Source: Rhodospirillaceae bacterium | GTDB lineage: Bacteria > Pseudomonadota > Alphaproteobacteria > UBA7985 | Reading direction: 5' to 3' | Length of the DNA: 64,000 nt | NCBI GenBank assembly: GCA_038141425.1 | Contig: JAYQIC010000011.1 | Coordinates: 319,681 to 383,680, forward strand | Shown: positions 8,875-44,110 of the stretch, in pieces | Layout: every line of letters begins with the position of its first letter | How positions within the stretch are numbered: the first letter of the stretch is position 1 | Notes under the pieces: model-generated | The model's input: only the letters and a program-made list of their open reading frames with translations | What the model was told of the DNA's origin: nothing | The model's database searches: none | Program-made: the position numbers and the translations under genes

Positions 8875-8876
8875 GG

Positions 8877-9181
8877 TTGCGCCGACCTTGTCTCGACCGC
8901 TTCGCGGTCTTCGCCAAGGCGTCGCGTAGTTGTTTGCTTTGCGCTCAACACTGCTTCGCCTTTGAGCGCGCTTGCAAAACGCCTTCGGCTTTGAGCGCGT
9001 TGGAGTTCCTCGCTGAAACAAGGTTGCGCCGACTTGTCCCCGACCGCGCTTCGCGCGGCGGGGCCAAGCGTCGCGCAACTCCTGGAGAAAAAGACGTCAG
9101 GCCGGGCGTAAGCGCGGCCTGTCCATTTGATTGCGCGGGGAGATTTGTAAGCCGCGAAGCGGCGTCAAATCGAGCACGCAA
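8877..9181. repeat. Hairpin-repeat mosaic cluster A (modules H2v-H4-H4-H2-H3-H1)
   Basis: Lies between convergent gene ends. H2 copies at 8877-8930 and 9022-9079, and H1 at 9131-9181. The same modules recur in clusters B-E. Confidence 0.9.
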
Positions 9182-9199
9182 CCCATGGACTGTTTGTGG

Positions 9200-9796
9200 T
9201 CAGGGGTAGAGTGGGTTTTCGGTCCATGCCGGCTCCGCTGTCTGGCCGCGTCAATCGCACCCGTTCGTGCAGCCGGAAATCACCTGCTCGCCAGAATTCC
9301 ATCGCCAGTGGTTGGAGGATAAAGCCACCCCAGTAGTCTGGTTTGGAGAAATATTCCTGCCCGTCAAACTGCGCTTCATACTTTGTAATCCGGTCCTCGA
9401 GCGCTGAGCGGTCGGAAGCGGTTGTGATTGAAGGCTGGCCCAGGCGCCAACGCGGGACCCACGCGCTCGGGTATCGAAATAAGCCTGAGATTCTTCTGCG
9501 CTGAGGCGCTCTACCGGGCCTTCCAGCCGCACCTGGCGGTCGAGTGTCTTCCAGTGGAACAGGGCGGCGGCACGGGGGTTGGCTTGCAAGGCCTGTCCCT
9601 TCCGCCCCTCGTAGTTCGTAAAAAAGCGAAAACCCCGGTCGTCGTGTCCCTTGAGCAGGACGATGCGGTTGCTCAGGGTTCCGTCATCGTCGAGCGTGGC
9701 CAGCGCCATAGCGTTGGGATCGTTGACCTCTGTCGCCGTAGCGTCTTCGAGCCATTGATTGAACAGGGCGAGCGGGTCCTGAACACGAAAGCTCAT
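9200..9796 (-). CDS. pdxH: Pyridoxamine 5'-phosphate oxidase, frame-disrupted as sequenced
   Basis: ORF 9251..9796 matches PdxH up to GAWASLQSQP. The conserved continuation SDRSALEDRITKYEAQF...YWGGFILQPLAMEFWRAGDFRLHER is in another frame (slip ~9419). The expected C-terminal ...NPLYP-stop needs a second slip at T-run 9216-9219. Confidence 0.85.
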
Positions 9797-10179
9797 TCTG
9801 CGGTCTCTCCTCGGGTCGACGGCGACAGTGTGGTCTGTCCGCTTTCAGGTGGCGCCAAAAGTGATCCGGTGAAGGGGTTGCACTGTCGCAGGGACCGGCA
9901 CTGTGGGCGGGGTGGAAGCCTTGGAAGATGCGTCAGGTTCTGACCGCGGTGCGGCGGCAATGGACTCAGCAAAAGGCTCAGCGCTGCCGGGGAAAAGGGG
10001 CTCAGCCAATGACCGGCCCCCGCCGGGAAGACGGAACCCGCGCCAGCTCGCCACCGGATCGACGAAAGCTGGTGTTGGGGCCAGCGTAGGGGCTGGGGCC
10101 AGCCGGTGCTCAGCCGTGTGAGGGGCCCTAGGGCTAACGTCGCTGTGCAGCGCTCCTCCCCTCTCATCCTGTCGAGCTG

Positions 10180-11085
10180 TCAGCCCGCTGTGCCAGCTAC
10201 GAAGCGGCGCAATGACCGTCGGCGATAGGCTAAGCGCTGACGTGCCTCCGGATCCCTGATTTTCTGCACTCCCGCGTTACCCTCTACGTCGACAGGGTTC
10301 GAGTCCAGAGTCGAGCAGATGGTCGATCTCCCGTTGGACAGCGGCAAGGGGTGACGCCTGCCCGAGAATGACGGGGCTTGCGTCGTCATCCTGCTGCTGT
10401 TGCCCCTGGCGTCGCCCGGACGGTTCTCAGTCGATGCGTTTGGGTTTGGTGCCATCGTCATCGAATAATCATCCTGCAGACGCATGTCCCGGGTCAAGTC
10501 CAGCGCCGCCCCGGAGACTGACGCCGTCTCAGCATCGTCAATCCTGACGCTCTCGTCCAGCACGGCATCGACGAAGATATAGCCTGGCTCGGCGTCCAGT
10601 GGCCCGCCATTGTCCCCGGCGGCGCGGTCTACCAGTTCGGCTGTCGGACTGAACAGCGGTGCACCGGCTACAGCGTCGATGTCCGCCAACCCGAAGCGGG
10701 CATCAGCGACCGCCAGCATGGGTGCGCCGGGCGCCAGCGCAGCATCGCCCTCGTCTCTGAACAGGCTGAGCAGGTTTTGCCCCTGAGCCAGCTGCTCCCT
10801 GGCTGCGAGGTCCTCGATCACATCTTCGGCCGCACCACCGTGCAGCCCGGGGAAGGGCTCGAGGTGAGTGCCCATGGCGCGCGACAGATCGTGCAGGTTC
10901 AGTGCTTCAAGATCATCGCGGATCCCCAGCGTCGGGGGCGGTCGCCGACCCTTCTTCGTCAAACTCGACCAACCCAGACCGGCGCAGGCGGTCCAGCGCA
11001 AAGGTGACCATGGCCGGGTGCGCGCGAAGCGAGGTTGCCAGATCTTCGACCAGGGCCCATCGGTGAAGGCGCGTCTGCGCTTCAA
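10180..11085 (-). CDS. Hypothetical acidic protein (frame uncertain at both ends)
   Basis: 301-aa ORF with an Asp/Glu/Ala-rich core. A wHTH-like segment (ALVEDLATSLRAHPAMVTFALDRLRRSGLVEFDEEG) is readable only in a neighbouring frame at the 5' end, with a possible slip at run 10934-10938. No family recognised. Confidence 0.45.
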   Translation of the reverse strand: MKRRRAFTDGPWSKIWQPRFARTRPWSPLRWTACAGLGWSSLTKKGRRPPPTLGIRDDLEALNLHDLSRAMGTHLEPFPGLHGGAAEDVIEDLAAREQLAQGQNLLSLFRDEGDAALAPGAPMLAVADARFGLADIDAVAGAPLFSPTAELVDRAAGDNGGPLDAEPGYIFVDAVLDESVRIDDAETASVSGAALDLTRDMRLQDDYSMTMAPNPNASTENRPGDARGNSSRMTTQAPSFSGRRHPLPLSNGRSTICSTLDSNPVDVEGNAGVQKIRDPEARQRLAYRRRSLRRFVAGTAG

Positions 11086-11094
11086 GATCGCGGA

Positions 11095-12075
11095 CTAGAC
11101 GGAGTCGAAGTCGAGCTGCTCTCCGCGGCCGGCTTGGAGAAAGCTGTCGATGGGGTCCTCACGCCGGGCAAGGCTGACCGCCAGCTGAGACCCGGCCAAC
11201 ACGGTCGCCCAGCCCAGATAAAGGATGACGAGAACAGCGATGACCGCCGGTAGTCCAAGGCTGCCGGTCTGCGCTCCCGCATCGATCGTCATGGAGCCGC
11301 CGTCGAGTACGAGAGTCGACAGCGCCAGCAAGCCACAGAGGCCGAGGCTCGACATTCCCGCCCCGAACAGCAGCGCTTTAAAGGCGGGTCGACGCAGCGA
11401 GAAGGTCAGGAACACCACAAACAGCGCCAGCATCAGCGCCAGACCATTCACCAGCCACACCACGACAGCGGCCAATCTGGGTGCTTCTGCGGTCGCGGCG
11501 ATCATCGTGCCAGCAAGGGCGAGCAAGGCCCCGATGAGCAGTGGGAGCAGGACGGCCAGCAGCCCCGTCAACGCCAGCCTGCGTCGCGGAACATCATCGT
11601 AGACCGATTGGTACCATTGGCGGGCACCCGCTGCCCGGAGCAAAGCTGCCGATGCCAACAGGCAGGCGCCGCCAACGGTGAGGCTCTCTAACCCAAAGCG
11701 GTCGAGGGTTGGGCGCAGCCACTCTGTCAGGGGCATCGACCAGGCCGCGAGGCTGGTCAAACCCAGCGCGGGAACTGATACAGATCGGGCCACGTCCATG
11801 CTCTCGAAGGGACCGCTCAGGACAGGCCCCAAGGCCTGCGCCAACAGCACGAGTCCCGGTAACCCGAGGATGACCGTTGCGAAGGTCAGGACACCAGCCC
11901 AAACGGGCATGAGACGCGCAAAATACGCCCGCCAGGCCCGGCGCACGATGGCCCGCAAGGTCTGGTCTGTCTCGCGGGTGCCGACAGGTGCTTCAAAGGC
12001 GTCGTAAAGGGTCAAGGAAAGGGCTGCCTTTCGCCGTGGGATGCTCTTCCTTAGCAAAACCACTGTCCGGCGCAT
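11095..12075 (-). CDS. YihY/BrkB-family inner membrane protein
   Basis: The ORF 11095..12132 N-terminus runs into repeat H1, so I start at ATG 12075. Multiple TM helices and the YihY-like RRAWRAYF...LTFATVILGLPGL region. The start is uncertain because no Shine-Dalgarno sequence is evident. Confidence 0.65.
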   Translation of the reverse strand: MRRTVVLLRKSIPRRKAALSLTLYDAFEAPVGTRETDQTLRAIVRRAWRAYFARLMPVWAGVLTFATVILGLPGLVLLAQALGPVLSGPFESMDVARSVSVPALGLTSLAAWSMPLTEWLRPTLDRFGLESLTVGGACLLASAALLRAAGARQWYQSVYDDVPRRRLALTGLLAVLLPLLIGALLALAGTMIAATAEAPRLAAVVVWLVNGLALMLALFVVFLTFSLRRPAFKALLFGAGMSSLGLCGLLALSTLVLDGGSMTIDAGAQTGSLGLPAVIAVLVILYLGWATVLAGSQLAVSLARREDPIDSFLQAGRGEQLDFDSV

Positions 12076-12080
12076 AGCAC

Positions 12081-12571
12081 CTGCGCGGGGGAGATTTGTA
12101 AGCCGCGAAGCGGCGTCAAATCGAGCCCGCAAGGTCTTTCCACTTTACGCTCAACACGGCTTCGCTTTGAGCGCGTGGGAGATTTTCGGGCCAATGCCCT
12201 TCATGCTCAAAACGCTACGCTTTGAGCGCGTTGGAGTTTTTCGCTGAAACAGGGTTGCGCCGACCTTGTCTCGACCGCTTCGCGGTCTTCGTCAAGGCGT
12301 CGCGCCGTAGCCTTAACGACCCTCAAGGCGAAGCGAGTTGAGTTTCAACTGATGCGACACTCAAAGCCCTTTGACGAGCTCAGGATAAACTCCGCGTGTT
12401 GAGTGTCCGCGCAGAGGTGGCGCGCTCGGGCCTTGGCCGCTTCGCGGCCGTCGGCCCTCCCACGCGCAACCAAACGGACACGCCGGCTTCGCCCGGCGTG
12501 ACTTTTTTGTGTTCGCCCGTTGCGCGGGGGAGATTTGTAAGCCGCGAAGCGGCGTCAAATCGAGCCCGCAA
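12081..12571. repeat. Hairpin-repeat mosaic cluster B (H1-H4-H4-H2v-x-H5-H3-H1)
   Basis: H1 copies at 12081-12132 and 12520-12571 (direct), H2 variant at 12253-12306, H5 at 12378-12468. Confidence 0.9.
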
Positions 12572-12612
12572 CCCATTTTTTATGAGATGTAGGAGACAGC
12601 GGCGGTCCGCAT

Positions 12613-13651
12613 CTAAGGGCAGGGGTAGGTGTGCTGGCGGTGAAGCCGGTGGATCTCCTTGAGCAACTCGTCGCTCAGGGTCACAGTGGTCGCGTCCAGC
12701 GCGACCTGCAGCTGTTCAATGGTGGTGCCTCCCGGGATCGACGCCGTCACAAAGGGCTGCATGTAGACAAACGCGTGGGCCATGATCGACGGGTCAAGAC
12801 CGTGTTCCTGCGCCAGCGCCACGTACTTCGCAGCGACGTCGTTGCCGTAGTCGGAGCTATAGCCCGAACGCTCCGGCCACAGCGCGAGCCGCGAGCCAGC
12901 CGGTCGGTTTCCATCGAGATACTTACCGCTCAGATGGCCAGCAGCCAGCGGCGAGTACGCCAATAACGCTACGTCTTCATTCATGGAGACCTCGGCGTTG
13001 CCGGTGTCGAAAACACGGTTCAGCAGGTTGTAGGGGTTCTGGATAGACGCGACCCGCGCCTGTCCCGTAGTCTCACTGCGGGCAATCCAGTCCATGACAC
13101 CCCAAGGGCTTTCGTTAGAGACACCCCAGGCACGGATTTTACCTTCTTTGACCAGCGCGTCCAACGTTGCCAGTGTCTCGGCGCGGTCCGCGCCTTCGTC
13201 CGGGTTCGGACGGGTTTGGCCAAGCTTACGGAAGTGGGTCCAGCCACGGTCCGGCCAGTGCAGTTGGTATAGATCGATGTAGTCGGTCTGCAGACGGCGC
13301 AATGACCCTTCAATGGCCTCGCGGATACTGCTCTCTGTAAAGCGGGAAACACCGCCACGGATCCAGTTGAACCCATCTTCCGGCCCCGTCACCTTGCTCG
13401 CGAGGATGATATCAGCGCGCTTACCGGTTCGAGTGAACCATTCGCCAATGATCTCCTCGGTACGACCCTGAGTGTCGGCCGTTGGTCGGCTGGGGTAGAG
13501 CTCGGCGGTGTCAAAAATTGATGCCGTTGGCGCTGGCCCAGTCCATCTGGGCATAGCCTTCTTCAGCTGAATTTTGCTGCCCCCAGGTCATGGTGCCGAG
13601 GCAAAATTCCGAAACCTGCATGCCGGTCCGGCCCAGTGGCTTCATTTGCAT
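12613..13651 (-). CDS. NADP-dependent aldo-keto reductase (Tas-like), frame-disrupted as sequenced
   Basis: ORF 12613..13554 aligns by eye with the E. coli Tas pattern (DTAELYP..., LYQLHWPDR, GVSNESPWGV, LLAYSPLA). The N-terminal MQMKPLGRTGMQVSEFCLGTMTWGQ...GINF is in another frame. The slip is in A-run 13514-13518. Confidence 0.85.
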
Positions 13652-13655
13652 TGTG

Positions 13656-14777
13656 TCAGTCTTCCTTCTTGTCCCAGGGGCGAGGGGTCAGGGGTGTTCC
13701 GTCGGCCCGCGCCTGTAGCAGGTGGTCGGCGAGTACGATTGCCATCATGGCCTCGGCCACGGGCACCCCGCGAATGGCAACGCAGGGGTCGTGACGGCCC
13801 TTGGTCACAACCTCCACGGCTTCACCGAAGCGGTTCAGCGACCGCCGCGGGGTCAGGATCGATGAAGTGGGCTTGATCGCCAGCCGGGCGACGACGGGCT
13901 GGCCGGTGCTCAGGCCACCGAGAATGCCGCCGGCGTGGTTGCTGGTGAAATGGGGAAGACCTTGGGCGTCCTGCTCCATCTCGTCCGCGTTACCGACCCC
14001 GTTAAGCGCGGCGGCAGCGAAACCATCGCCAATCTCAACGCCTTTAGCGGCGTTGATGGTCATCAGCGCAGCGGCAAGGTCGCTGTCGAGTTTGTCGTAA
14101 ATCGGCTGGCCCAGACCGGCTGGCATACCGTCGGCGACCACTTCGATCACGCCGCCCGCAGAGTTGCCGTCCTTTCGAAGCTGATCCAGCGCTTCAGCCC
14201 AAGCGGTCGCCGCCTTGGCATCGGGGCAGAAAAAGGCGTTTTCGGCGACTTGATCCCAGTCCCACGCGCCGCGGTCTAGCCCATGACCACCCATGGCCAC
14301 CAGCGCACCGCGCACGATAATCGGCGCGGGTGGCAGCTCGCGCAGGATCACCCGGGCGATGGCACCGGCGGCGACCCGCATCGCGGTCTCCCGGGCCGAA
14401 GACCGACCACCGCCGCGGTAGTCGCGCAGGCCGTACTTCTGCCAGTAGGTGAAATCAGCGTGGCCCGGGCGGAACTGATCCCGGATGTCGCCGTAGTCCT
14501 TCGAGCGTTGGTCGCCGTTGTGGATGATCAACCCAATGGGTGATCCGGTGGTGCGGCCTTCGAACACGCCGGAGACGATACTGACTTCGTCGCCTTCGCG
14601 CCGCTGGGTCACGTACTTGCTGGTGCCGGGCTTGCGCCGGTCGAGGTCGGGCTGAATGTCCGCCTCGCTCAGGCTGAGCCCGGCGGGCACACCGTCAACC
14701 ACGCAGCCGATCTGTGGGCCGTGGCTCTCGCCGAAGGTGGTGAAGCGGAACAGCGTTCCGAATGAATTTCCGGCCAT
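13656..14777 (-). CDS. aroC: Chorismate synthase
   Basis: 373-aa ORF with [20 protein letters not shown] and GRHDPCV motifs. Confidence 0.95.
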
Positions 14778-14785
14778 GGGCTGCC

Positions 14786-15619
14786 TCAGGCTTTCTTGGC
14801 GGCGGTCTCGGTGAGCAAATCGCCCAGCTCGCCGGCCTTTTCCATGGCGATCATGCCGTTGATGTTGGCGCCGCCGTCAACGTAGTGGATTTCGCCCGTC
14901 ACTCCGTTGGACCAGGGCGAGATCAGGTACAGGCAGGCGTCGCCAACGTCCTGAATGGTGACGTTGCGGCGCAGTGGTGCGTTCAGCTCGTTCCACTTCA
15001 ACATGGTGCGGAAGTCGCCGATGCCAGAGGCAGCGAGGGTTCGCACGGGGCCGGCAGACAGGCCATTCACCCGGACGCCGCGCGGCCCGAAGTCAGCAGC
15101 AAGGTAGAGCACAGAGGCCTCAAGCGCAGCCTTAGCCACGCCCATGACGTTATAGTTGGGCACGACCTTGACAGCGCCCTGATAGGTCAGGGTCACAAGC
15201 GAACCGCCTTCGTTCATCAGTGGCGCGGCTCGTTGCGCCACAGCCGTGAAGGAATAGACCGAGATATCCATGGTCAGCGCGAAGTTCTCCCGGCTGGTGC
15301 CCAGGTATTCGCCCTTGAGCTCGTCCTTGTTGGAAAAGCCGATGGCGTGAACGACGAAATCAAGGCTGCCCCACTTGTCTTCGAGAGCTTTGAACAGAGC
15401 ATCGATCGAGGCGTCGTCGGTCACATCACAAGTGAGCATGTCGGCCCCGACCTGGTCCGCGAGTGGCGCCACGCGCTTTTCGAGGACATCGCCCTGGTAA
15501 GAAAAGGCCAGCTCAGCGCCTTCCCGCGCCGCGGACTGGGCAATGCCCCACGCAATGGACTTGTCGTTGGCCACGCCCATGATCAAACCGCGCTTACCGG
15601 CCAGAACGCCCGTGCTCAT
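14786..15619 (-). CDS. fabI: Enoyl-[acyl-carrier-protein] reductase (NADH)
   Basis: [20 protein letters not shown] and the SDR/FabI pattern. I chose ATG 15619, which is preceded by GGAAGGAAA, rather than the ORF-track start at 15661. Confidence 0.92.
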
Positions 15620-15727
15620 GCTCGTTTCCTTCCGTGAAAGATATCCTGTTTCGAGTTGCATCCGTTCTACCTTCTGCGGTCTGACCGGCGCAAGCGGGCG
15701 CGGCGCTTCTCAGCTCTGTTCCATCGG

Positions 15728-16049
15728 TTGCGGGCTCGATTTGACGCCGCTTCGCGGCTTACAAATCTCCCCCGCGCAGTCAAACGGACAGGCCGCGCTT
15801 CACGCGGCCTGACGTTTTTTCTGTATGGAGTTGCGCGACGCTTGGCCCCGCCGCGCGAAGCGCGGTCGGGGCAAGTCGGACAAGTCGTTGACACTCAACG
15901 CTCCGCTTTGCTTCAACAAAGAACTCCAACGCGCTCAAAGGGCCAAAAGCAGCGTGTTGAGCGCAAAGTAAACCGCAGAAGTTGCGCGTGTTGAGGGAGA
16001 TTGCGCGGGAGATTTGAAAGCCGCGAAGCGGCGTCAAATCGAGCGCGCC
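15728..16049. repeat. Hairpin-repeat mosaic cluster C (H1r-H3r-H2r-H4r-H1)
   Basis: H1 at 15728-15778 (reverse) and 16001-16049 (forward) form inverted ends. H2 at 15831-15885 (reverse). Confidence 0.9.
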
Positions 16050-16053
16050 ACCC

Positions 16054-19242: not shown

Positions 19243-19257
19243 GGATACCCCGAGCCT

Positions 19258-31106: not shown

Positions 31107-31141
31107 AGGGCGCTGGAGTCTCGGCTTCAGCGCCCTTTTTC
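31107..31141 (+). terminator. Rho-independent terminator of groESL
   Basis: AGGGCGCTG-N12-CAGCGCCCT followed by TTTTT. Confidence 0.75.
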
Positions 31142-31585
31142 GTGGCCGCAGTCGGGGTCGGGCTGGGCTGGGGTCGCATAATGCTGCGTGCCACTGTGTC
31201 ATAAAGGTCGACGCCCTGGCTGGGGATAAGGTGCTGTTCTGAGGCTGAATTTTCTCCGTGAACAACGCCAAGGCTGCGCTTGTGTCACTGGGATGCCCAT
31301 TCTGGATTCGGGAATCATTCCAGATGGATTCGCGCAAAAAGAAACTGCAAAAAATACGGGCTTTCAGGGCTAATCTTGGCACCGTCCACCCGGCCGGATC
31401 AGGCCCGCACTTCAGTTGGCCAGAGTCGCCGCTGCGTAGCGATGACTCATGATTTGATGTTGGTCCTCGCGCCCCCTCCGACCCCCTGTTGATAGAGTTG
31501 CGGCCCTTCAGGAATTGCAGCGGATGACGCAAAGGGCCTTTCATTCACGCGGCATTTCATCAAGGTTTTGCGGGTCGAAGCTTAG

Positions 31586-31873
31586 TTGGGGTGCAGCGTG
31601 AACGAGGGCGAAACAGCTCCGCAAAATGGTGTTCAGATTTTGGGCGTCGATGATCGCGGGCCTTTGGGGCCAGCGTTCTGGTACTGGCGTTTGCTCTGGC
31701 AGGGCCGTGTGGTCGGCCAGAGCGCGCCGGGCCAGACCTTTGCCACCAAGGCGGAAGCCTACGAAAACTATAAACTGGCGACACGCGCGATGGAGCACCA
31801 GCTCGGGCGGTCGACCTGGCGGGTTGGCACGTCCATCCCCGTGGGTGAGGCCGCGCGGCCAAGCTGGCGCTGA
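31586..31873 (+). CDS. Small hypothetical protein, DUF1508/YegP-like segment
   Basis: FWYWRLLWQGRVVGQSAPGQTFATKAEAYENYKLATRAM resembles the YegP repeat pattern (F.F.L.A.NG..I..S..Y.....A..GI). The start is uncertain. Confidence 0.4.
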   Translation: MGCSVNEGETAPQNGVQILGVDDRGPLGPAFWYWRLLWQGRVVGQSAPGQTFATKAEAYENYKLATRAMEHQLGRSTWRVGTSIPVGEAARPSWR

Positions 31874-32009
31874 GGGCTGGCCGACCGCCTGTGTGGCGGG
31901 GGCGACCACAGCGCGATGCTGCGCTTCGAAAATACGGGGCATCATACGCAGCGCGATGCTGTTACACCGCTTCCACCGGCACAGTACAGCTACAACAAGT
32001 ACACGCGCT

Positions 32010-32949
32010 TCAGGGAAGCTGTGACAGCCGGTCCTTGAGCAGCTGCCAGTAACCCGCGACATCGACGTCGCGCAGATAGAGCACGTTGGCCGGGCGGTCG
32101 GTGACCCGCCACCAGTCTGCCACTGTCATCCCCCGGGTCAGGGCGGAGCCGGTTTCGATCTCGACGTTGATATGGCGCCCGCGGTAGAGGTCGGGCCGCA
32201 GCAGGTAGGCGATGACGTTGGGGTCGTGCAGGGGGCCGCCTTGCGAGCCGTATTTCTCCACGTCGAAGCGCTCGAAAAAATCGAGCAGGCCGGCCGTTGC
32301 CGGGCCGGTGGCGTTGGGCATGGCGCGAAAGTCGGCGATGATGGCGTCGCTGGTCAGGGTCTGGTGGGTCAGATCCAGCGGAATCATCACCACTGGGCGC
32401 ACCGCAGTGCATGACCAGGTCGGCGGCTTCTGGATCGACGTAAATGTTGAACTCGGCCGCTGGGGTGGTGTTGCCGCCTTCGAACAGGCCACCGCCCATG
32501 AGCACGATTTCGCGCAGGCGAGGGCCGATTTCGGGCGCCTGACGCAGGGCCTGCCCGAGATTGGTCAGCGGCCCGAGGGCGCAGAGGGTCAGGGTGCCGG
32601 GCGCGCTGTCCATGATCGTCTCAATGATGAAATCGACGGCGTGGCCTTCAGCCAGCGGCATGGTGGGCTCGGCCAGGTCGTAGCCATCGAGACCGGTCTT
32701 GCCGTGGACGTATTCCGCCGTGACCAGTTCACGCTCCAGCGGGGCGCTTGCGCCGGCGAAGACCGGGATGTCGGCGCAGCCCGCCAGCTCGCACACGATC
32801 CGCGCATTGCGGCTGGTCAGGGCCAGTGGAACGTTACCGGCAACGCAGGTGACGCCGCGCACTTCAAGCTCGGGTGAGGCGAGGGCAAGCAGGATCGCCA
32901 AGGCGTCATCCTGGCCGGGATCGGTGTCGATGATGATGGGACGGGGCAT
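32010..32949 (-). CDS. Inosine/uridine-preferring nucleoside hydrolase, frame-disrupted as sequenced
   Basis: N-terminus is IIIDTDPGQDDALAIL (the DXDXXXDD signature). The C-terminal half (VVMIPLDLTHQTL...LHDPNVIAYLL) is in ORF 32010..32492. The slip is at run 32395-32397. Confidence 0.85.
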
Positions 32950-33077
32950 GGGTGGGGGTCACTCCGGGACCGTGATAGGGAGTGGGCGGCAGTCTTCAGC
33001 ATTTTGAGGCGTGGGTCCAGCGGTCTGGGCTCGGCGGTCGGGGTCGTGGCTCATGGTTCATGGAGGCCAAGATTTCG

Positions 33078-33420
33078 GTTGCGCCGACTTGTCCCCGACC
33101 GCGCTTCGCGCGACGGGGCCAAGCGTCGCGCATTTTCCATGAAAATGCGAAAAGACGTCAGGCTGCGAGAAGCGCGGCCTGTCCGTTTGACTGCGCGGGG
33201 GAGATTTGTAAGCCGCGAAGCGGCGTCAAATCGAGCACTCGAGCATTTGCGCTCAAAACGGCTTCGCTGTGAGCTCAACACGTGTTGGGGACCTTTGATG
33301 GAGAACGATACTGAACGCCTTTCGACAGGCTCAGGCTGAAAATCACGTGTTGAGTGTCAAAAGAACAGGTGGCGGGCTCGGTCCTCGGCCGCTTCGCGGC
33401 CTTCGGCCCTCCCCCGCGCA
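33078..33420. repeat. Hairpin-repeat mosaic cluster D (H2-H3-H1-H4-H5)
   Basis: H2 at 33078-33132, H1 at 33191-33238, H5-like at 33329-33418. Confidence 0.9.
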
Positions 33421-33455
33421 AACCAGCGTCGGAGCACAATGCCCCGGGAAAGCCC

Positions 33456-35919: not shown

Positions 35920-36042
35920 CGCCACTTAACCGCGTCGGGCTGACATTGGTCGGCCTGACGCGAACCCAGGCGAACCAAGCCCAACCTAGTCCAGCCCAGC
36001 CCAGCCCCGTTCGTTTTGCCTTCCGGCTTCGGTTTCCTGCCT

Positions 36043-36414: not shown

Positions 36415-36504
36415 GGTGAGGTGGCCGAGTGGCTTAAGGCGCTCGCCTGGAACGCGGGTATAGGGGAAACTCTATCGTGGGTTCGAATCCCACCCTCACC
36501 GCCA
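36415..36504 (+). tRNA. tRNA-Ser (anticodon GGA)
   Basis: Acceptor stem GGTGAGG/CCTCACC, anticodon loop CTGGAAC, long variable arm, T-arm GTGGG-TTCGAAT-CCCAC, encoded CCA. Confidence 0.95.
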
Positions 36505-36967: not shown

Positions 36968-36988
36968 ACCATCGGTTGGCGCGCTTAA

Positions 36989-37004: not shown

Positions 37005-37139
37005 ACCTGAGACGATATTCAATTCGTTAAAGCTAAAACATTAAGTTAGTCTGAAGCGGTTCATTGCCGCGCCCTGTCCTGTGTCCGCTGTCGGCAAAGG
37101 TGAACGACGCAAGCGACATCTCAGAACAGGAGAAGCACA

Positions 37140-37472
37140 ATGGCTGCCCTCGCAATGGTAATGCCGATTCTGCCCGGCAAAAAAGACAAGTGGCTGAAGA
37201 TGATCGAAGAGATCAACAGCCCCGCCGCCAAACCCGATTTCGATGCTGTCCGGGAAAATGCCGGCCTGCACGAGCGTACATTCCTGCAAGAAACGCCCAT
37301 GGGAGATTTTGTGATCCTCACTTACGACGGCGATGACCCCATCGCTGGCTTCGGTCAGATCATGCAGACGATGGACGAAGATTTTGCCGCCTTCGCGCTC
37401 GACGTCCATGGTCTTGACGCTTCGGCGCCGCCGCCGCCCATGCCGCGGCTGGTGTACGACAGCCGTTCGTAG
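37140..37472 (+). CDS. Small hypothetical protein preceding the NHase-family genes
   Basis: 110-aa ORF preceded by GGAGAAG. No family recognised with confidence. Confidence 0.6.
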   Translation: MAALAMVMPILPGKKDKWLKMIEEINSPAAKPDFDAVRENAGLHERTFLQETPMGDFVILTYDGDDPIAGFGQIMQTMDEDFAAFALDVHGLDASAPPPPMPRLVYDSRS

Positions 37473-37621
37473 GCCCGTCACCCCCTAGGCCCGTCACCGT
37501 CACCAGAGGGTAGCGCAGGACCGCTGAGGGTAAGGGCCCTCAGTCGGTCGTTGCTCCCGCCCCGCGCCCTGCTATTCTCCGACGACAAATCCCCTGGCGG
37601 AGAGAGCAGGAGTGCGGGCAA

Positions 37622-37945
37622 ATGACTGAGACCAAGGCCTATCACGACGTTGGCGGCGATGACTTCGGCCCGGTGCCGATGATCGATGGCGAGTATCAGC
37701 TGTGGGAGAAGCGGGTCGATGCCATGATGCGGCTGCTGTCCTCGCCCGGTGTCGCGCTGATGCGGGTCGACGAGCTGCGTCGCGGGATCGAGACGCTGGG
37801 CGAGGCCGCCTACAACGCCGAGCCCTACTACGGCAAGTGGGCGCGGTCGCTGGCCAAGATCATGGTCGAGAAGGGCGTGCTGACCCAGGACGAGCTCGAC
37901 GCAAGGATCGCCGCCCTGCGCGCCGAGCGGGGATTGCCCGAATGA
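37622..37945 (+). CDS. Nitrile hydratase family, beta-subunit N-terminal half as a separate ORF
   Basis: YHDVGGDDFGPVP...WEKRVDAMMRLL...ELRRGIETLG...YYGKWARSLAKIMVEKGVLT matches the N-terminal half of NHase beta. The stop overlaps the next start (ATGA). Confidence 0.8.
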   Translation: MTETKAYHDVGGDDFGPVPMIDGEYQLWEKRVDAMMRLLSSPGVALMRVDELRRGIETLGEAAYNAEPYYGKWARSLAKIMVEKGVLTQDELDARIAALRAERGLPE

Positions 37946-38247
37946 CGGCGGCGCAGTTTGACGTCGGCGACCGGGTGACGGTCCGTGATCTGGCCGCCGA
38001 GACCGGGCTGAGCGGGCATATGCGCGCGCCGGTCTACTGCCGTGGGCACAGCGGTGAGGTCGAGCGGCTGTGCGGTGTGTTCGGCAACCCGGAAACGCTG
38101 GCCTATGGCGGTGACGGCAGCCCGCCCCAGCCGCTGTACCGGGTCCGCTTCCGTCAGGCAGAGGTCTGGCCCGACTACGTCGGCCCCGCCGCCGACACCA
38201 TCGAAATTGAGATTTACCAGCACTGGCTGAAGGCAGCGACGCCATGA
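37942..38247 (+). CDS. Nitrile hydratase family, beta-subunit C-terminal half as a separate ORF
   Basis: FDVGDRVTVRD...HMRAPVYCRGHSGEVERLCGVFGNPE...PQPLYRVRFRQAEVW...IEIEIYQHWL matches the C-terminal SH3-like half of NHase beta. ATGA overlaps on both sides. Confidence 0.8.
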   Translation: MTAAQFDVGDRVTVRDLAAETGLSGHMRAPVYCRGHSGEVERLCGVFGNPETLAYGGDGSPPQPLYRVRFRQAEVWPDYVGPAADTIEIEIYQHWLKAATP

Positions 38248-38912
38248 CCATGACCTCCGCAGGACAGGATCATTCCCACGATCACGATCACGATCACGAC
38301 CACGACCATGATCACGACCATGATCACAGCGCGATCGAGGCCGAGGATACATCGAATTCGGACACCGCACTGCTGGCAGACGCGCTCCGGCTGGTGCTGA
38401 TCGAGAAGGGTATTTTCACGGCGGCTGACGTACAGGCGCAGCTCGACCTGATGGAAACCCGCTCGGACCGCAACGGGGCGCGGTTGGTCGCCCGCGCGTG
38501 GCAGGATCCGGCGTTCAAGGCGGCGCTGCTCGAAGACGGGGCCAAGGCGGCGCTGGATGCTGGTTTCGATATGAAGGGCACGCCGCTGGTGGTGCTGGAG
38601 AACACCGACGCGGTGCACAACGTCGTCGTCTGCACCCTCTGTTCCTGCTACCCCGTGACCCTGCTGGGCCCATCGCCGGAGTGGTACAAGTCCAAGGCCT
38701 ACCGCGGCCGTGTGGTGCGGGATCCGCGCTCGGTGCTCGACGAATTCGGGACGTCGATCGGTGCTGACCGTGAAGTGCGGGTGCACGATTCCACCGCCGA
38801 CATGCGCTATATGATCCTGCCGAAGCGGCCGGCGGGCACGGATGATCTGTCCGAAGCCGCGCTGGCGGATATCGTCACCCGCAACGGCCTGATCGGCGTT
38901 GCCGAAGTCTGA
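38244..38912 (+). CDS. Nitrile hydratase family alpha subunit, cobalt-type metal site, with N-terminal (His-Asp) repeat
   Basis: VVVCTLCSCYP (CTLCSC at 38631-38648) is the Co-type claw motif. The N-terminal DHSHDHDHDHDHDHDHDHDHS is at 38268-38327. Confidence 0.85.
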   Translation: MTMTSAGQDHSHDHDHDHDHDHDHDHDHSAIEAEDTSNSDTALLADALRLVLIEKGIFTAADVQAQLDLMETRSDRNGARLVARAWQDPAFKAALLEDGAKAALDAGFDMKGTPLVVLENTDAVHNVVVCTLCSCYPVTLLGPSPEWYKSKAYRGRVVRDPRSVLDEFGTSIGADREVRVHDSTADMRYMILPKRPAGTDDLSEAALADIVTRNGLIGVAEV

Positions 38913-38955
38913 GACTGCGGTATCGCGGGGTGTGCGGGCGGGGGCGACCTGCGCC

Positions 38956-39441
38956 CTAGCCGTCGAGCAGGACCTCGCCCTCGACTTCAATCGCGAAACC
39001 CATGGGCAGGGCCGCGACGCCGATGGCCGAGCGCGCGTGCCGGCCCACGTCCGGCCCGAAGGCTTCGAGGATCAGATCGCTGAAGCCGTTGACCACAAGA
39101 TGCTGTTCAGTGAACTGCGGGGTCGAGGCCACCATGCCAAAGACCCGCACCCAGCCGCTGACCCGCGACAGCTCTCCGATTTCGGCCTTGAGGTTGGCCA
39201 GCGCAGACAGGGCGATGTCGCGCGCGGCGTCGTAGCCTTCCTGCGTGGTCATATCGGCGCCGAGCGTGGCGAAGGGGCCATTGATCGCGCCTTCGGCGCT
39301 CTGCCGTGGGTGGCCGGAAATCAGGGCGCGGTTGCCCCGGACGTTGATGAAGGAAAACGGCAGCTTCATCCCCGGTGCGAGCTTGATGGGGTCGGGCAGT
39401 TGCAGGCCCAGGGCGGCGATACGGTCTTCAGGCGTGGTCAT
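38956..39441 (-). CDS. RidA/YjgF-family protein
   Basis: 161 aa with a YjgF-like C-terminal pattern (ARSAIGVAALPMGFAIEVEGEV). Confidence 0.75.
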   Translation of the reverse strand: MTTPEDRIAALGLQLPDPIKLAPGMKLPFSFINVRGNRALISGHPRQSAEGAINGPFATLGADMTTQEGYDAARDIALSALANLKAEIGELSRVSGWVRVFGMVASTPQFTEQHLVVNGFSDLILEAFGPDVGRHARSAIGVAALPMGFAIEVEGEVLLDG

Positions 39442-39557
39442 GGTGGCGATACCCCAATGCTAAAGGTGGCGGGACGAGTTGCACCGAGGCTAACCGCGCC
39501 ACCGGGTTCGTCAAGCATCCTGAGGCTGCGCCTGACGCCAGCGTTCAGGCGGCCTGC

Positions 39558-39968
39558 TCAGGCGAAGCGCTCGCCACGGACGAAGCCCACGCGGGTGGTG
39601 GGGAAGTACTGCAGCGGGACGCCGAGATCGTTGATTTTGTCGATCACCGCCTGCGAGACGGTGCCGTAGATTTCGATGGTGAAACTCTCGGCAAGGTCGG
39701 CATGCCTGCCCACGTAGTCGACGACCGGCGGGTTATCGGCGTGGAACAGGAAATCGTCGCTCCGCCGGTATACTTCCGACCAGACCAGCTTGTGCGGGTC
39801 GGTGCTGTCCTGATCGAAGTTGTGGAACAACATGCCCGGCTCGCTGGCCTCGACTTCGGCGTCGACACCGGCCGCGAGATCGAGGTAGGCGTCGAGCTTG
39901 CCGGGGCTGACCGTGATGCGGGCGAGCAGGATAAAGGGGTTGGTGCCGTCAGAGACTGTTGCTGACAT
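39558..39968 (-). CDS. ABM (antibiotic-biosynthesis-monooxygenase-like) domain protein
   Basis: 136 aa. ILLARITVSPGKLDAYL...MLFHNF...WSEVYRRSDDFLFH is typical of a ferredoxin-like ABM fold. Confidence 0.6.
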   Translation of the reverse strand: MSATVSDGTNPFILLARITVSPGKLDAYLDLAAGVDAEVEASEPGMLFHNFDQDSTDPHKLVWSEVYRRSDDFLFHADNPPVVDYVGRHADLAESFTIEIYGTVSQAVIDKINDLGVPLQYFPTTRVGFVRGERFA

Positions 39969-40004
39969 AGTTCATTTCCTCGGTGTGGTTCGTTAGTCGG
40001 GGGG

Positions 40005-41192
40005 TCAGGCTGGCTGGCTCGGGTCATTGCCGCCGCCACTGCTTTCGTTCACTGAACCTCCGGTATTCAGCTTGCTCGACATCATCAGCGCGGCGGCGAT
40101 GATGGCCCAGGCAATGCCGAGGATGATCATGCAGGCGGTGATCGATACGGACTTTGCGATGAAGCCGATGATCGGCGGGCCGAACAGAAAGCCGGCGAAG
40201 GCGAGCAGGTTGACGTCGTTGACCGCAGCGATCGCGTTATCGGTCTCCTCGCGCGCTGCCACCCCGAACAGCACCGGGATGAAGTTGGCGGTGAAGAAGC
40301 CGAAGAAGCCGAAGCCGACAACGATCAGGTAGGGGTTCCCCAGCACGGCCGTTACCAGAAAGATCACGCATCCGAGGATCATGCCCCAGCCCGCGACCAG
40401 CACTTCGCCGAAGCGGTTGATCAGGGCTTCGCCGTACAGACGGGAGACGATTTCAGCAACGTTGAAGGCCATGATGCCGGTCCCGCCGAGCGCGATCGCC
40501 AGCCCGAGATCCCGGGTCAGCCACAGCGCCGACCAGTCGAGGATGATCGAAATGGTCGCCATCGACAGGGCGGCCAACCCACCAAGGAACAGCACCAGTC
40601 CCGAGGGCAGGCGGAAGCCGGGACTCTCGATCGGGTCAAAGGTGACGGTGCGGAACGGCACGAAAAAGATGAACAGGCCGACGAGGATGGTGAGCACGAA
40701 CAGGCCGCCGAACACGAAGGCCGGGGGCATGGCCAGTGCCTGGCTGATCATGCCGATGACCAGTCCCGACAGCGAGCCCGCGGAGAATGAGGCCCAGTGC
40801 AGCGGCTGCAGGCGACGCCCGGAGCGGTTCTCGGCTTGCGTAATCACCGCCAGCGTCGAAGGCTGAATCACCCCGAAGGCGAGGCTGAGCGGGGCGGCGA
40901 GTACGATGAACAGCGTGGTATTCGGCGCGAACACCCAGATGATCAGCGCAAAGGCGAAGACCACGACCGCCAGCCCGGTAATCCTCGGCCCGAAGCGGGG
41001 CAGCAGCACGTGACTGACGAACAGCATGGAGGCGAGGCTGAAGATCCCGAACATCAGCAGGGCAAAGCCGAACATGTCGTACTCGATGCCGAGCAGGTCG
41101 ACCTTCCACGGGATGTAGGACAACCAGCATCCATAGCTGACTAGACAGATGATGACCGCGAGGCGGCTTCCCCAAATCATACGATCGACCAC
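40005..41192 (-). CDS. MFS transporter
   Basis: About 12 TM helices. I chose GTG 41192, which follows GGGAGA (alternative ATG 41180). The upstream part of ORF 40005..41843 is tandem-repeat and non-coding read-through. Confidence 0.75.
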   Translation of the reverse strand: MVDRMIWGSRLAVIICLVSYGCWLSYIPWKVDLLGIEYDMFGFALLMFGIFSLASMLFVSHVLLPRFGPRITGLAVVVFAFALIIWVFAPNTTLFIVLAAPLSLAFGVIQPSTLAVITQAENRSGRRLQPLHWASFSAGSLSGLVIGMISQALAMPPAFVFGGLFVLTILVGLFIFFVPFRTVTFDPIESPGFRLPSGLVLFLGGLAALSMATISIILDWSALWLTRDLGLAIALGGTGIMAFNVAEIVSRLYGEALINRFGEVLVAGWGMILGCVIFLVTAVLGNPYLIVVGFGFFGFFTANFIPVLFGVAAREETDNAIAAVNDVNLLAFAGFLFGPPIIGFIAKSVSITACMIILGIAWAIIAAALMMSSKLNTGGSVNESSGGGNDPSQPA

Positions 41193-41425
41193 GGGTTTTC
41201 TCCCTGTTTGCCTTTTATTCCGGGCCGTCGCCCGGTGTCCGAACCAAACACACTGTGGGCGAAATGCTAAGGCGAAAACCATGGAGATGAGACGGGTGAC
41301 GATGGATTGATAGAACCGGGTCTTTGCGAGGCAGGTGTCTCGAGGTTCCGGGCTGTTTTTGCCCAATCGGCAGGCAGACCCGTGTCGCTGCCCGGCCTCT
41401 GGCTGCGCCCGGATGCTGTCGCGTC

Positions 41426-41512
41426 GGCCGGGGTTCCGGCTGTCGAGCGGGCCGGGGTTCCGGCTGTCGTGCCGGCCGGGGTTCCGGCTGTCATTCCGGC
41501 CGTGGCACGGGG
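41426..41512. repeat. 3.5 copies of a 24-bp tandem repeat
   Basis: GGCCGGGGTTCCGGCTGTC + 5 variable nt, at 41426, 41450 and 41474, with a partial copy at 41498. Lies in the divergent MFS/GFA intergenic region. Confidence 0.9.
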
Positions 41513-41585
41513 CGGCTTTTATTCCGCTTTTACTTTTCCGAGGATCAAAGGCAGACTCAGGGCCTGATTTACGGGAGAAAACGCC

Positions 41586-42053
41586 ATGAGCGAACGACAG
41601 GGTGGCTGCTCGTGCAAGGCCACGCGCTACAGGTTGACCGAGGAGCCGATGTTTACCCACGTTTGTCACTGCAGCATCTGCAAGCGGCACACGGGCACGG
41701 CCTTTGTCACCCACATCTTTATTGAGCGCGCGCATCTCGAGGTGACCGAGGGTCGGGTGGAGGCCTACGCCGGGCAGACCGGCAGTGGCGCTGAGCACTG
41801 GGTCTACCGCTGTCCCGATTGCCTGTCGGCGCTCTACAGCCACTACGCTGGCAACGACCAGATTGCGCTGGTCAAGGGCGGGACGCTCGACGACCCGGCG
41901 TCATTGCCGCCCGGCGCGCACCTGTGGGTTGAGAGCAAGGTACCGTGGATCGAGATTCCGGATGGCGTGCCGGCCTTTGACCAGAACTATGTTGCCGCCG
42001 AGGTCTGGCCCGCTGCCTCCATGGAGCGGCGGCGCAAGGCAGGCTGGGGCTGA
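41586..42053 (+). CDS. GFA (glutathione-dependent formaldehyde-activating)/CENP-V family protein
   Basis: GGCSCKATRY...HVCHCSICKRHTG...YRCPDCLSAL are the zinc-Cys motifs of the GFA family. Confidence 0.85.
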   Translation: MSERQGGCSCKATRYRLTEEPMFTHVCHCSICKRHTGTAFVTHIFIERAHLEVTEGRVEAYAGQTGSGAEHWVYRCPDCLSALYSHYAGNDQIALVKGGTLDDPASLPPGAHLWVESKVPWIEIPDGVPAFDQNYVAAEVWPAASMERRRKAGWG

Positions 42054-42162
42054 TCCGCGCGCTGTCTTCGGCCTGATTGCTGTGGCGGCTTGTTTCCCGT
42101 TTTCTTGAGGCCCTTTCGCTCGCTTTCGCCTGTTTTCACTGAACTGCAACCCGGACCCTGAC

Positions 42163-43640
42163 ATGGATCAACTTGCCCTCGCCGAAGCTTTCTTTTCCGC
42201 CCGGCGCACCAAAGACACCTTGCCGCTGATCGCCCTGCCCGCCGACCCGGATCGCGCATGGTTGCGCGGTCTGCCGGAGCGGCACGCGCGCTGGCTCCGC
42301 AGTCAGGGTGCTGATCTTGACGGAGCCGGGCTGGTGCTTCCGTTCCCGGCGAGGATGGCAGCCTCGAAGCGGTGTATTTCTCCCCGACCAGTCACGCCGG
42401 AGACAGCTGGCGGCTTGCGCATCTGCCCGCCAAGCTGCCGCCGGGTCGTTACGCGCTCGAGGATGAGGCGGGTCTGAGCCGAGGGGCGGCGACACAGGCC
42501 TGTTTCGGATGGGCGCTGAGCCAGTGCCCCGACCGGCGGTATAAATCTGACGGCGCTGATCAAGGCGGCCGCGGCAGGTCGCCGGGCAACGGCGCCGCAG
42601 GCGGAGGCGCCGGCCGTGCTGGTCTGGCCCAAGGCAGCCGATCGGGGGAGGTCTCGGCCTGGCTCGAAGGGGTGGTCATGGCCCGACGGCTGGTCAACAC
42701 ACCTGCTGAAGACATGGGGCCGGCGGCGCTGGCCGAGGCGGCGCAGGCGCTGGCGGAACGGCATGGGGGCCGGTTCGAGCAGGTGGTCGGCGATGCCATG
42801 CTCGCGGAAGGTTTTCCGGCGGCCCACGCGGTTGGCCGGGGGCGACACCGGCACGGGCGCCGCGGATTCTGACCCTGCGGTTCAGGGGTTCGCGATCGCG
42901 GCGCCGACGGTGGCGCTGGTGGGAAAGGGCGTGGTGTTTGACACGGGTGGATTGGATATCAAGCCGCGTTCGTCCATGCGGAATATGAAGAAGGATATGG
43001 GCGGCGCGGCCGTGGCGCTGGGGCTGGCGAGGACGCTGCTGGCGCTGGGGGTGGACCTCAACCTGCTGGTGGTGATCGGCGCGGTGGAGAATGCGGTGTC
43101 AGCGGGGTCTTTCCGCCCGGGAGACGTGCTGCAGACGCGCAAGGGGCTGACGGTGGAGGTGGGGACACGGACGCGGAAGGGACGGCTGGTGCTCGCCGAC
43201 TGCCTGACCTATGCGGGCGAGCAGGATCCGGACCTGATCCTCGATTTTGCCACCCTGACCGGGTCGGCGCGGGTGGCACTGGGGCCGGACCTGCCGCCGG
43301 TGATGGCGCGGGACAATGGTCTGTCGACGGCTATGGCGCAGGCCGGGCACGAGGCCGGAGACCCGCTTTGGCCCATGCCGCTGTACCTGCCCTACGCCCA
43401 GCACCTGCGCAGCGCCATCGCGGATCTTTGCAACATCACCGAGGGTTTTGGCTTTGCGGGATCGATTACGGCAGGGCTGTTTCTGGAGAAATTCGTGCCG
43501 AAGGGAACGGCTTGGGCGCACTTTGACCTGTTTTGCTGGAACCCTTCAAGCCGCCCAGGCCGACCGGCGGGGGAGAGGCGCACGCGCTGCGGGCGATGGC
43601 TGGTTTTCTCAGGACGTGGAAGCCCGACCGGCGGTCGTAG
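42163..43640 (+). CDS. M17 leucyl-aminopeptidase-family protein, heavily frame-disrupted as sequenced
   Basis: Family motifs are spread over three frames: ARRLVNTPAEDMGP, HAVGRG, APRILTLRF, VALVGKGVVFDTGGLDIKP, MKKDMGGAA, GRLVLAD, ATLTGSARVALG, GRPAGGEAHALRAMAGFL. At least six slips (~42348, ~42553, ~42645, ~42850, ~42885, ~43575) plus a compensating pair at 43165/43180. Confidence 0.75.
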
Positions 43641-43654
43641 AGCGTTTCAATTGA

Positions 43655-44110
43655 TTGCGCGACGCTTGGCCCCGCCGCGCGAAGCGCGGTCGGGGACAAG
43701 TCGGCGCAACTTCCTTCCGCTGACACACAACACGCTCAAGGGCGCAGCCGTTTTGAGCGCAAAGGTAAAGTTGCGTGCTCGATTTGACGCCGCTTCGCGG
43801 CTTACAAATCTCCCCCGCGCAGTTAAACAGACAGGCCGCACTTCGCCCGGCCTGACGTCTTTCCGCATTTTCTCTGAAAATGTGCGTGGGAGGGCCGAAG
43901 GCCGCGAAGCGGCCAAGGCCCGAGCGCGCCACCTCTCCATTCACACTCAAGACGCGGAGTTTATCCTGAGCCTGCAGAAGGACTTCAAGTATTGTTGGCG
44001 TGAGGAGCACCAACGCGCTCAAAGCCGAAGGCGTGTTGAGCGCAAAGCAAAGAATTGCGCGGCGCTTGACCCCGCCGCGCGAAGCGCGGTCGGGGGCAAG
44101 TCGGCGCAAC
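43655..44110. repeat. Hairpin-repeat mosaic cluster E (H2r-H4r-H1r-H3r-H5r-H4r-H2r)
   Basis: H2 at 43655-43710 and 44055-44110, H1 at 43771-43822, H5 at 43884-43971, all in reverse orientation. Lies between convergent gene ends. Confidence 0.9.

Follow-up and report, generated by a model that had tools for sequence, protein, structure and literature searches.

The 64,000-nt stretch of contig JAYQIC010000011.1 (positions 319,681 to 383,680, forward strand) from the Rhodospirillaceae bacterium assembly GCA_038141425.1, here called the window, carries five clusters of hairpin-forming repeats. These are best read, with a probability of about 0.7, as mosaics of the type of the bacterial interspersed mosaic elements (BIMEs), built from a lineage-specific family of extragenic palindromic repeats that incorporates a repetitive extragenic palindrome (REP) of the CGTC-tagged type; the repeats would have been mobilized in trans, retained at the 3' ends of genes, and reshuffled by recombination. 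The feature is a new family of the REP/BIME kind rather than a new type of system. It comes from an uncultured marine alphaproteobacterium whose nearest sampled relatives are metagenome-assembled genomes (MAGs) labelled Geminicoccus sp. SP156 and Alphaproteobacteria bacterium Co_bin_450. An earlier note, made from the letters of the window, had described the clusters as mosaics of five modules, H1 to H5, and had compared them to REPs and BIMEs. This analogy holds: the modules are extragenic multicopy palindromes of alternating orientation with intervening motifs, located at gene 3' ends and at orthologous sites in relatives.

The comparison is based on the window and 133 further loci, 1.13 Mb in total, all of them selected for module content or synteny; the tblastn search, the HUH/Y-motif scan, the paralogue search, and the count of 340 modules are restricted to the first 732 kb of this sample of selected loci. 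Copies were first found by repeat finding and nhmmer, and the modules were annotated with family hidden Markov models (HMMs) built from all copies. Clade A consists of the window, Co_bin_450, and SP156, and clade B consists of Co_bin_828/MED834.

HMM annotation places 32 module copies in the window, every one of them inside the five clusters and none elsewhere. The sequences at the five locations are as the earlier note had given them, and its estimate of about 1.9 kb, or about 3% of the window, agrees with the measured cluster lengths (307 + 491 + 325 + 345 + 457 = 1,925 bp, 3.0%). H2 is split into H2a and H2b, and H5 is resolved into H5a and H5b. The clusters are as follows, with the orientation of each module given as plus or minus.

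Cluster 1, 8876..9182; convergent flanks, EamA (plus strand, stop 8872-8874) and PNPOx (minus strand, stop 9251); modules H2b+ 8876-8928, H4+ 8938-8977, H4+ 8975-9005, H2a+ 9022-9078, H3+ (the CGTC-type REP) 9089-9130, H1+ 9132-9182.
Cluster 2, 12082..12572; both flanks on the minus strand, the 5' end of 11095-12015 and an aldo-keto reductase (stop 12613); modules of the first part, H1+ 12082-12132, H4+ 12145-12183, H4+ 12205-12236, H2b+ 12254-12305, H4-like CTCAA..TTGAG hairpin ~12322-12342; modules of the second part, H5a+ 12356-12407, H5b+ 12416-12469, H3' (tag AGTC, T-run on the plus strand) ~12470-12512, H1+ 12520-12572.
Cluster 3, 15727..16051; flanks, a fabI-like gene (minus strand, start 15661) and a CAF17/YgfZ-like gene (minus strand, stop 16054); modules H1- 15727-15778, H3- 15779-15820, H2a- 15831-15879, H4- 15924-15966, H1+ 16003-16051.
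Cluster 4, 33077..33421; flanks, IU_nuc_hydro (minus strand, start 32949) and a hypothetical gene (minus strand, stop 33456); modules H2a+ 33077-33132, H3+ 33150-33191, H1+ 33192-33240, H4+ 33246-33274, H5a+ 33307-33358, H5b+ 33368-33421.
Cluster 5, 43655..44111; convergent flanks, Peptidase_M17 (plus strand, stop 43637-43639 after frameshift correction) and 2-Hacid_dh (minus strand, stop 44115-44117); modules H2a- 43655-43710, H4- 43728-43763, H1- 43770-43821, H3- 43822-43862, H5b- 43880-43933, H5a- 43943-43992, H4- 44007-44046, H2a- 44055-44111.

Repeat finding and nhmmer recover the seven H1 copies counted earlier (9131+, 12081+, 12520+, 15727-, 16001+, 33191+, and 43770-) and also the seven H2 copies, which divide into five of H2a (9022+, 15831-, 33077+, 43655-, and 44055-) and two of H2b (8876+ and 12253+). 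The three copies ascribed to H5 are present as well, with a length of ∼110 nt instead of ∼90 nt and a composite structure of H5a plus H5b. Two copies are incomplete: H2a at 15831 has lost the 5' base stem and H1 at 33191 the 3' base. The 13-mer GCCGCGAAGCGGC occurs 10 times in the window, compared to an expected 0.04, and GCGAAGC occurs 44 times, compared to 22.7 expected. All modules had been described as centered on GCTTCGC; this is the case for H1, H2a, H2b, H5b, and some copies of H4, but not for H3 and H5a.

The large hairpins H1, H5b, H2a, and H2b are one superfamily, stem-swapped subfamilies of a single three-tier hairpin architecture of 52 to 57 nt, and not independent modules. Written with the apex as TTC, all four share the base stem (G)GT(T/G)GCGC...GCGCA(A/C), with a start of GTGG-CGCGC in H5b and in type B of H1. 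Unpaired bases of the internal loop are conserved, CTC at the 5' side and, in H1 and H5b, TCCC(A/C) at the 3' side. The apical stem is GCCGC-TTC-GCGGC (CGCGC-TTC-GCGCG in H2a), and the middle stem is the part that varies between subfamilies. H1 and H5b align without gaps over 58 columns, with 4 of the 6 middle-helix pairs changed on both sides (A-U/U-A versus G-C/C-G); 93% of the cells of this helix are paired, compared to 30 to 52% when the 3' partner is slid. The difference between H1 and H5b is essentially one ancient stem swap followed by a few later compensations, as opposed to many independent events. The family shows unusually clearly that the shape of the hairpin and not its sequence is retained, with four compensated pairs splitting two subfamilies and with swapped stems in the CGTC unit.

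The folding check proposed in the earlier note separates the modules into two groups. H1, H2a, H5b, and H3 are predicted to fold on both strands, with energies of -23 to -42 kcal/mol as RNA and -16 to -29 kcal/mol as DNA and z scores of -3 to -6.5, whereas the folding of H2b (z scores of -1.2 and -2.8) and of H4 and H5a (-1.3 to -1.6) is weaker and less distinct. On the opposite strand the apex reads GCGAAGC, a DNA mini-hairpin described as extraordinarily stable, with a melting temperature of 76.5°C, and nuclease resistant (PMC13037366).

H3 differs from the large hairpins and consists of CGTC, AGGCCGCG, a loop, CGCGGCCT, and GTCCGTTTGA. It always directly abuts H1 or H5b, with one H3 per unit, and hairpins of this CGTC kind are found in the window only inside the clusters. 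The tag is CGTC in four of the five window copies and AGTC in the fifth; related loci include TGTC variants, and CGTC is also the tag in clade B. The stems of 7 to 9 bp contain at most one mismatch and enclose loops of 3 to 7 nt. All copies have A-T as the first stem pair and G-C or C-G as the second, and the conserved tail reads GTC(CGTTTGA). At the same position clade B carries CGTC, ACGGCGGAC, acc, GTCCGCCGT, and GTCCGTTTGAC, and further stems also occur. A lone 14-bp hairpin at 35930-35965, downstream of lepA, with the structure CGCGTCGGGCTGAC-attg-GTCGGCCTGACGCG, has an arm resembling the H3 start CGTCAGGCC and may be a diverged, solitary unit of the CGTC type.

PMC3733652 (Di Nocera, De Gregorio, and Rocco, 2013) describes CGTC-tagged REPs as predominantly alphaproteobacterial and without a known transposase. 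It defines them by a CGTC (or TGTC/CCTC) tag, a stem of 8 to 9 bp with A/T at the first and second positions, a loop of 4 to 5 nt, a 3-nt tail that is mostly CCA, and an arrangement mostly as head-to-head dimers. Compared with this description, H3 is not a new kind of repeat and fits most of the features: the tag, the stem, the loop, the A-T first pair, a conserved short tail, and variable stem types, along with an alphaproteobacterial host, no associated transposase, and a location between convergent or unidirectional genes near their 3' ends. It departs from the same description in its second stem pair (G-C instead of A/T), in its tail, GTC(CGTTTGA) instead of CCA, and in being single and fused to the 52-nt H1 or to H5b instead of forming head-to-head dimers.

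The modules follow a recurrent order. In clade A the unit is X+ H3+ H1+, where X is H2a, H2b, or H5b, often with H4 before X and with H5a before H5b; H4 and H5a are CTCAA...TTGAG hairpins. The unit of clade B is X, a CGTC hairpin with another stem, and H1. When both are written with the apex TTC, X and H1 are mutually inverted around H3, which makes the unit a hairpin heterodimer with a small REP at its center, the plan of a BIME.

In organization and location, the clusters match REPs and BIMEs as these are summarized in PMC2817692 and PMC3733652. The clusters resemble the BIMEs of Escherichia coli as extragenic mosaics of alternating palindromic units separated by other conserved motifs, in which unit subtypes are combined as heterodimers, lie downstream of genes, and act as recombination substrates. 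The sequences are unrelated, and the main units are three-tier hairpins of 52 to 57 nt in contrast to REPs of ∼35 nt. The clusters also lack the unpaired GTAG tag, no REP-associated tyrosine transposase (RAYT) was found in the 1.13 Mb, and the motif at the center of the unit belongs to a different REP superfamily (CGTC). By the definition of a REP as a palindrome of 20 to 40 nt with an unpaired GT[A/G]G tag, H1, H2, and H5b fail, and only H3 is in the size range, with the tag CGTC.

The presence/absence comparison suggested in the earlier note shows that positions are conserved and content varies. Clusters are found at orthologous sites between the two clades, whose coding DNA is 75 to 83% identical, and module identity between clades (0.83 to 0.90) is roughly the same as within them. 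Between Co_bin_450 and SP156, with 92 to 96% identity, the modules differ in 10 of 13 orthologous clusters. In one of these pairs X is swapped, H5a plus H5b standing in place of H2a between a conserved H4 and the spacer-H3-H1. Cluster 2 contains 439 bp between direct H1 copies that are extra in the window, compared to a single H1 in Co_bin_450 (locus L067) and Co_bin_828 (L042). Two contigs that otherwise match at 100% differ in carrying one or two copies of a 169-bp [H1-H2b] unit. Clusters orthologous to cluster 4, with varying content, are found in L034 and L087 to L096; ten further assemblies have at this site the six modules of the window, variants with deletions at hairpin apices, or one decaying H1.

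For every one of the five window clusters, at least one relative shows a break in synteny at the same place. Compared with Co_bin_450, homology with L049 stops at 9183 (cluster 1) and synteny with L081 ends at 15814 (cluster 3). In L042 of Co_bin_828, the segment 9101-12130 is inverted and transposed to the cluster 3 site, between fabI and the ygfZ-like gene; clusters 1, 2, and 3 delimit this rearranged 3-kb segment. The breaks at cluster 4 are found relative to L089 and L094 and those at cluster 5 relative to L027 and L067. The family marks rearrangement breakpoints between close relatives and provides a well-resolved example of the REP/BIME type from an uncultured marine alphaproteobacterial lineage. 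The clusters are also likely to break metagenome assemblies.

The 3 kb from 9089 to 12132, with direct H1 copies at both ends, show only ∼75% identity to Co_bin_450, compared to ∼89% for the flanks on either side; judged by sequence identity, this suggests a replaced or transferred segment with the repeats as end points. Other indels lie away from the H clusters; for example, ∼2.1 kb of the window (39455-41584, with genes 39558-39968 and an MFS transporter) correspond to positions 3921-4119 of L027 and are absent from the Co_bin_828 ortholog.

In the 732-kb sample, 332 of the 340 modules lie outside called genes, and the remaining 8 are an artifact of a frameshift at cluster 5. Here the open reading frame (ORF) 42616-44127, encoding a Peptidase_M17 protein, formally runs through the entire cluster to 44127. 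The read-through results from a 1-nt deletion in a G-run near 43570 (43565-43580), and the true stop is the TAG at 43637-43639: the L027 ortholog ends in ...RPAGGEAHALRAMARFLKSWKPGRVP*, and the window yields the identical C terminus only after a switch of frame. The deletion reflects a sequencing error or a genuine frameshift. The earlier description of the modules as strictly intergenic has to be amended for cluster 5, which lies formally inside the uncorrected ORF. For annotation, the clusters create long false ORFs in high-G+C DNA and can mask frameshifts, the M17 peptidase gene being a case in point.

Of the convergent intergenic regions in the sample, 42 of 87 contain a cluster, as do 32 of 381 unidirectional and 7 of 89 divergent ones (48% of convergent regions, compared to 8% of the other types); since the sample was picked for H1, these occupancies are meaningful only as ratios between the types of region. 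The gene calls behind these statistics come from an iterated dicodon model, in which the IU_nuc_hydro region is still miscalled, adding some noise. A distance of 3 to 6 nt from a stop codon had been described as frequent; it applies to three of the seven facing stops in the window, but in the larger sample facing stops are at a median distance of ∼37 nt, with 17 of 128 no more than 3 nt away, and facing starts at a median of ∼115 nt. Within the window, clusters are found in two of nine convergent regions and in three unidirectional regions. The cluster-free convergent regions there have hairpins of their own, the clearest being an A-run/T-run terminator at 19.7 kb.

Modules also occur elsewhere in the genome and in related genomes and are thus not confined to the clusters of the window. 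The H1 core has at least 86 matching tiles in the genome collection, and among the matches listed, all come from four marine MAGs, namely, Alphaproteobacteria bacterium Co_bin_450 and Co_bin_828, Geminicoccus sp. SP156, and Rhodospirillaceae bacterium MED834. The H2a core matches 37 marine metagenome contigs, and the module order of cluster 5 is identical in metagenome contig L129. Searches of viral contigs with the H1 and H5b cores gave no match. The window is 89 to 95% identical to Co_bin_450 and ∼80% identical to Co_bin_828. Contigs encoding its GroES are present in 612 blocks of the assembly collection, which indicates that the wider group is widespread in sequenced samples, with the limit that a chaperonin of 96 amino acids may be identical beyond the lineage; an exact look-up of the window GroEL found it not on record.

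In the comparison of L016 with L078/L080, contigs of MED834 are 100% identical to Co_bin_828 over 8 kb except for one 169-bp repeat unit, and MED834 holds this region twice (L078 and L080). MED834 and Co_bin_828 are either the same population or cross-contaminated bins.

The repeat family appears to be undescribed, while its kind is ordinary. At the Rfam gathering thresholds only the signal recognition particle (SRP) RNA and one tRNA match, leaving the large hairpins without a counterpart. A permissive search of the 8.8- to 16.1-kb region gave one subthreshold match to STnc400 at 9019-9133 (27.7 bits compared to a cutoff of 80), which was dismissed. In the searchable literature, the core strings of the modules appear only as the center of the attC site of aadA7 and never as repeats of this kind. 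The earlier statement that the sequences belong to no recognized family thus applies to the large hairpins, which have no clean match to a described family, but not to H3 with its likeness to the CGTC REPs. The RIME elements are alphaproteobacterial intergenic mosaics of palindromes whose function is unknown. The clusters resemble them in this general description, and Rfam contains no RIME family that matches the window.

The preferred reading combines these observations in a multistep course of events. The units would have spread in the common ancestor of these genomes as nonautonomous hairpin elements, with an enzyme acting in trans. They would have been retained only where harmless or useful, beyond stop codons and especially in convergent regions, leaving promoters undisturbed. 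They would be transcribed into mRNA 3' ends as predicted very stable stem-loops, which may block 3' exonucleases, and some copies may terminate transcription. Present change would consist mainly of homologous recombination and gene conversion between shared modules, seen as deletions or duplications between direct H1 copies, swaps of X, inversions, and translocations; such recombination would turn the clusters into breakpoints of genome rearrangement.

Several results weigh against this reading. No clean pair of a filled and an empty orthologous site was seen, and the indel boundaries examined show no target-site duplication of the kind expected for a miniature inverted-repeat transposable element (MITE), so that transposition is inferred only from copy number and subfamily structure. 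The single decaying H1 at the cluster 4 site belongs to an 86%-identical lineage and indicates that not every copy is under purifying selection. The large hairpins are longer than classical REPs (20 to 40 nt) and lack the GTAG tag. The orientation of the modules has no significant tie to the direction of transcription, H3 being in the terminator sense in 10 of 15 unidirectional regions, and the best terminator-like window copies of H3, those of clusters 2 and 3, are both opposed to both flanking genes. An initial count of 192 G.T to 88 A.C mismatches was discarded for bias, since a single strand had served to derive the structure; among the pairs that are Watson-Crick in the consensus, 28 G.T compared to 30 A.C show no asymmetry. 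Without asymmetry of mismatches or bias of orientation, no single functional strand can be named.

The search for a mobilizing enzyme was negative as well and likewise speaks against this reading. The RAYT search proposed in the earlier note was run on the 1.13 Mb of module-bearing or syntenic loci: phmmer with E. coli TnpA-REP, a query checked to be identical to PDB 4ER8, found no RAYT among ORFs of at least 50 amino acids. In the first 732 kb, neither tblastn nor an HUH/Y-motif regular expression applied to ORFs of at least 60 amino acids found one, and a within-genome paralogue search for insertion sequences gave no repeated gene. The window, which had been described as free of RAYT and other transposase genes, contains no RAYT, transposase, or integrase domain among its ORFs of at least 50 amino acids compared with RAYT and the ∼50 ORFs scanned against Pfam, which returned only housekeeping families; the scan of 19 to 39 kb draws in part on gene calls from orthologs, and a few ORFs (e.g., 7-1119) are outside it. 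A sample of 1.13 Mb leaves room for a single-copy enzyme gene elsewhere in the genome.

Such a gene is the premise of an unlikely alternative, in which the hairpins would be copied by a single-copy RAYT (HUH/Y1) encoded elsewhere and acting on the folded single strand during replication, as for the REP doublets forming hairpins (REPINs) of Pseudomonas and Enterobacteria. The clusters share with REPINs the inverted palindromic doublets, the subfamilies, and a long persistence at fixed sites, as reported for REPINs. The conservation of unpaired loop bases while the stem is swapped, an apex that forms a single-stranded DNA mini-hairpin, and the similarity to the GT(A/G)G tag of the GTGG-CGCGC at the start of H5b and of type B H1 would also fit. 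However, GT(T/G)G lies within the base stem and is not an unpaired tag, and the doublets are heterodimers of different subfamilies, such as H2a with H1, that are unable to pair with each other. In addition to the missing RAYT in the sample, the alphaproteobacterial CGTC REPs are themselves reported without a dedicated transposase in PMC3733652. A more specific proposal, to be regarded as improbable, takes the 93-nt composite of CGTC REP and 52-nt hairpin as the full unit for a non-RAYT enzyme that copies or maintains the alphaproteobacterial CGTC REPs, with the swapped stems as specificity determinants. If true, this would offer a handle on how CGTC REPs spread. Independently of this proposal, the family shows that a CGTC REP can be a constant component of a larger composite unit, and it is a tractable place to seek how REPs of this type spread.

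An origin as host-selected terminators or stabilizers of 3' untranslated regions that were never mobile would account for the strong bias to convergent regions, the proximity to stop codons, the T-runs after some H3 copies, and the predicted very stable RNA hairpins. It is nevertheless very unlikely: more than 100 copies with 83 to 90% identity in discrete subfamilies make independent origins impossible, orientation is independent of transcription, most large hairpins lack a U-run, and seven of the clusters are in divergent regions. A reading as integron-like attC sites, or as a cluster of attC without integrase, serving as single-stranded sites for a tyrosine recombinase, has even less in its favor. 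The modules resemble attC in length and as imperfect hairpins of 52 to 57 nt with conserved unpaired bases, their ends GTTGCGC...GCGCAAC are similar to GTTRRRY/RYYYAAC, and the H1 center GACGCCGCTTCGCGGC (e.g., 12097-12112, present in all H1 copies) is identical over 16 nt to the center of the attC of aadA7 (primers in PMC2811028). This match arose from a literature-wide string search, which makes chance a serious possibility, and it probably represents convergence on a stable GC stem with a GAA/TTC triloop. The attC reading was rejected on polarity and arrangement, since attC reads 5'-RYYYAAC...GTTRRRY-3' on both strands and the modules read 5'-GTT...AAC-3', no ORFs or cassettes lie between the sites, and neighboring sites alternate in orientation; the window ORFs scanned also include no integrase. 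An assembly or binning artifact can practically be dismissed. The window and its relatives are derived from metagenomes, and the tandem-unit difference between otherwise 100% identical contigs could be a repeat collapse, but the clusters recur at orthologous positions in independent NCBI, ENA, and JGI assemblies, including pilon-polished contigs of 0.4 to 1 Mb.

Other features of the window and its relatives stand apart from the repeats. A segment of ∼865 bp (31146-32011) directly after the groEL terminator (hairpin 31107-31136) is not built of H modules, and its ORFs in the window have no Pfam match. It is present in the window, L087, L088, L092, L095, and L132 at only 80 to 86% identity, with a 91-amino-acid ORF called in some assemblies, and is absent from L034, L089, L090, L093, L094, and L096, where the spacer measures 36 to 120 nt. 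A Phage_integrase gene with extra DNA beside a tRNA gene in L087 (17367-18734) and L091 (16650-18017) is a strain-specific island, absent from the window (just after the tRNA at 36415-36501) and from other strains.

Runs of CAC/GAC/CAT codons with a 12-nt periodicity at 862-1014 and 38253-38339 would encode His/Asp-rich stretches, one in the first ORF by the cobalamin genes and the other at the start of the ORF for the nitrile hydratase alpha subunit (38244-38912). Three tandem 24-nt units (GCTGTCG.G..GGCCGGGGTTCCG) at 41415-41505 lie in the minus-strand ORF 40005-41843, upstream of its MFS domain.

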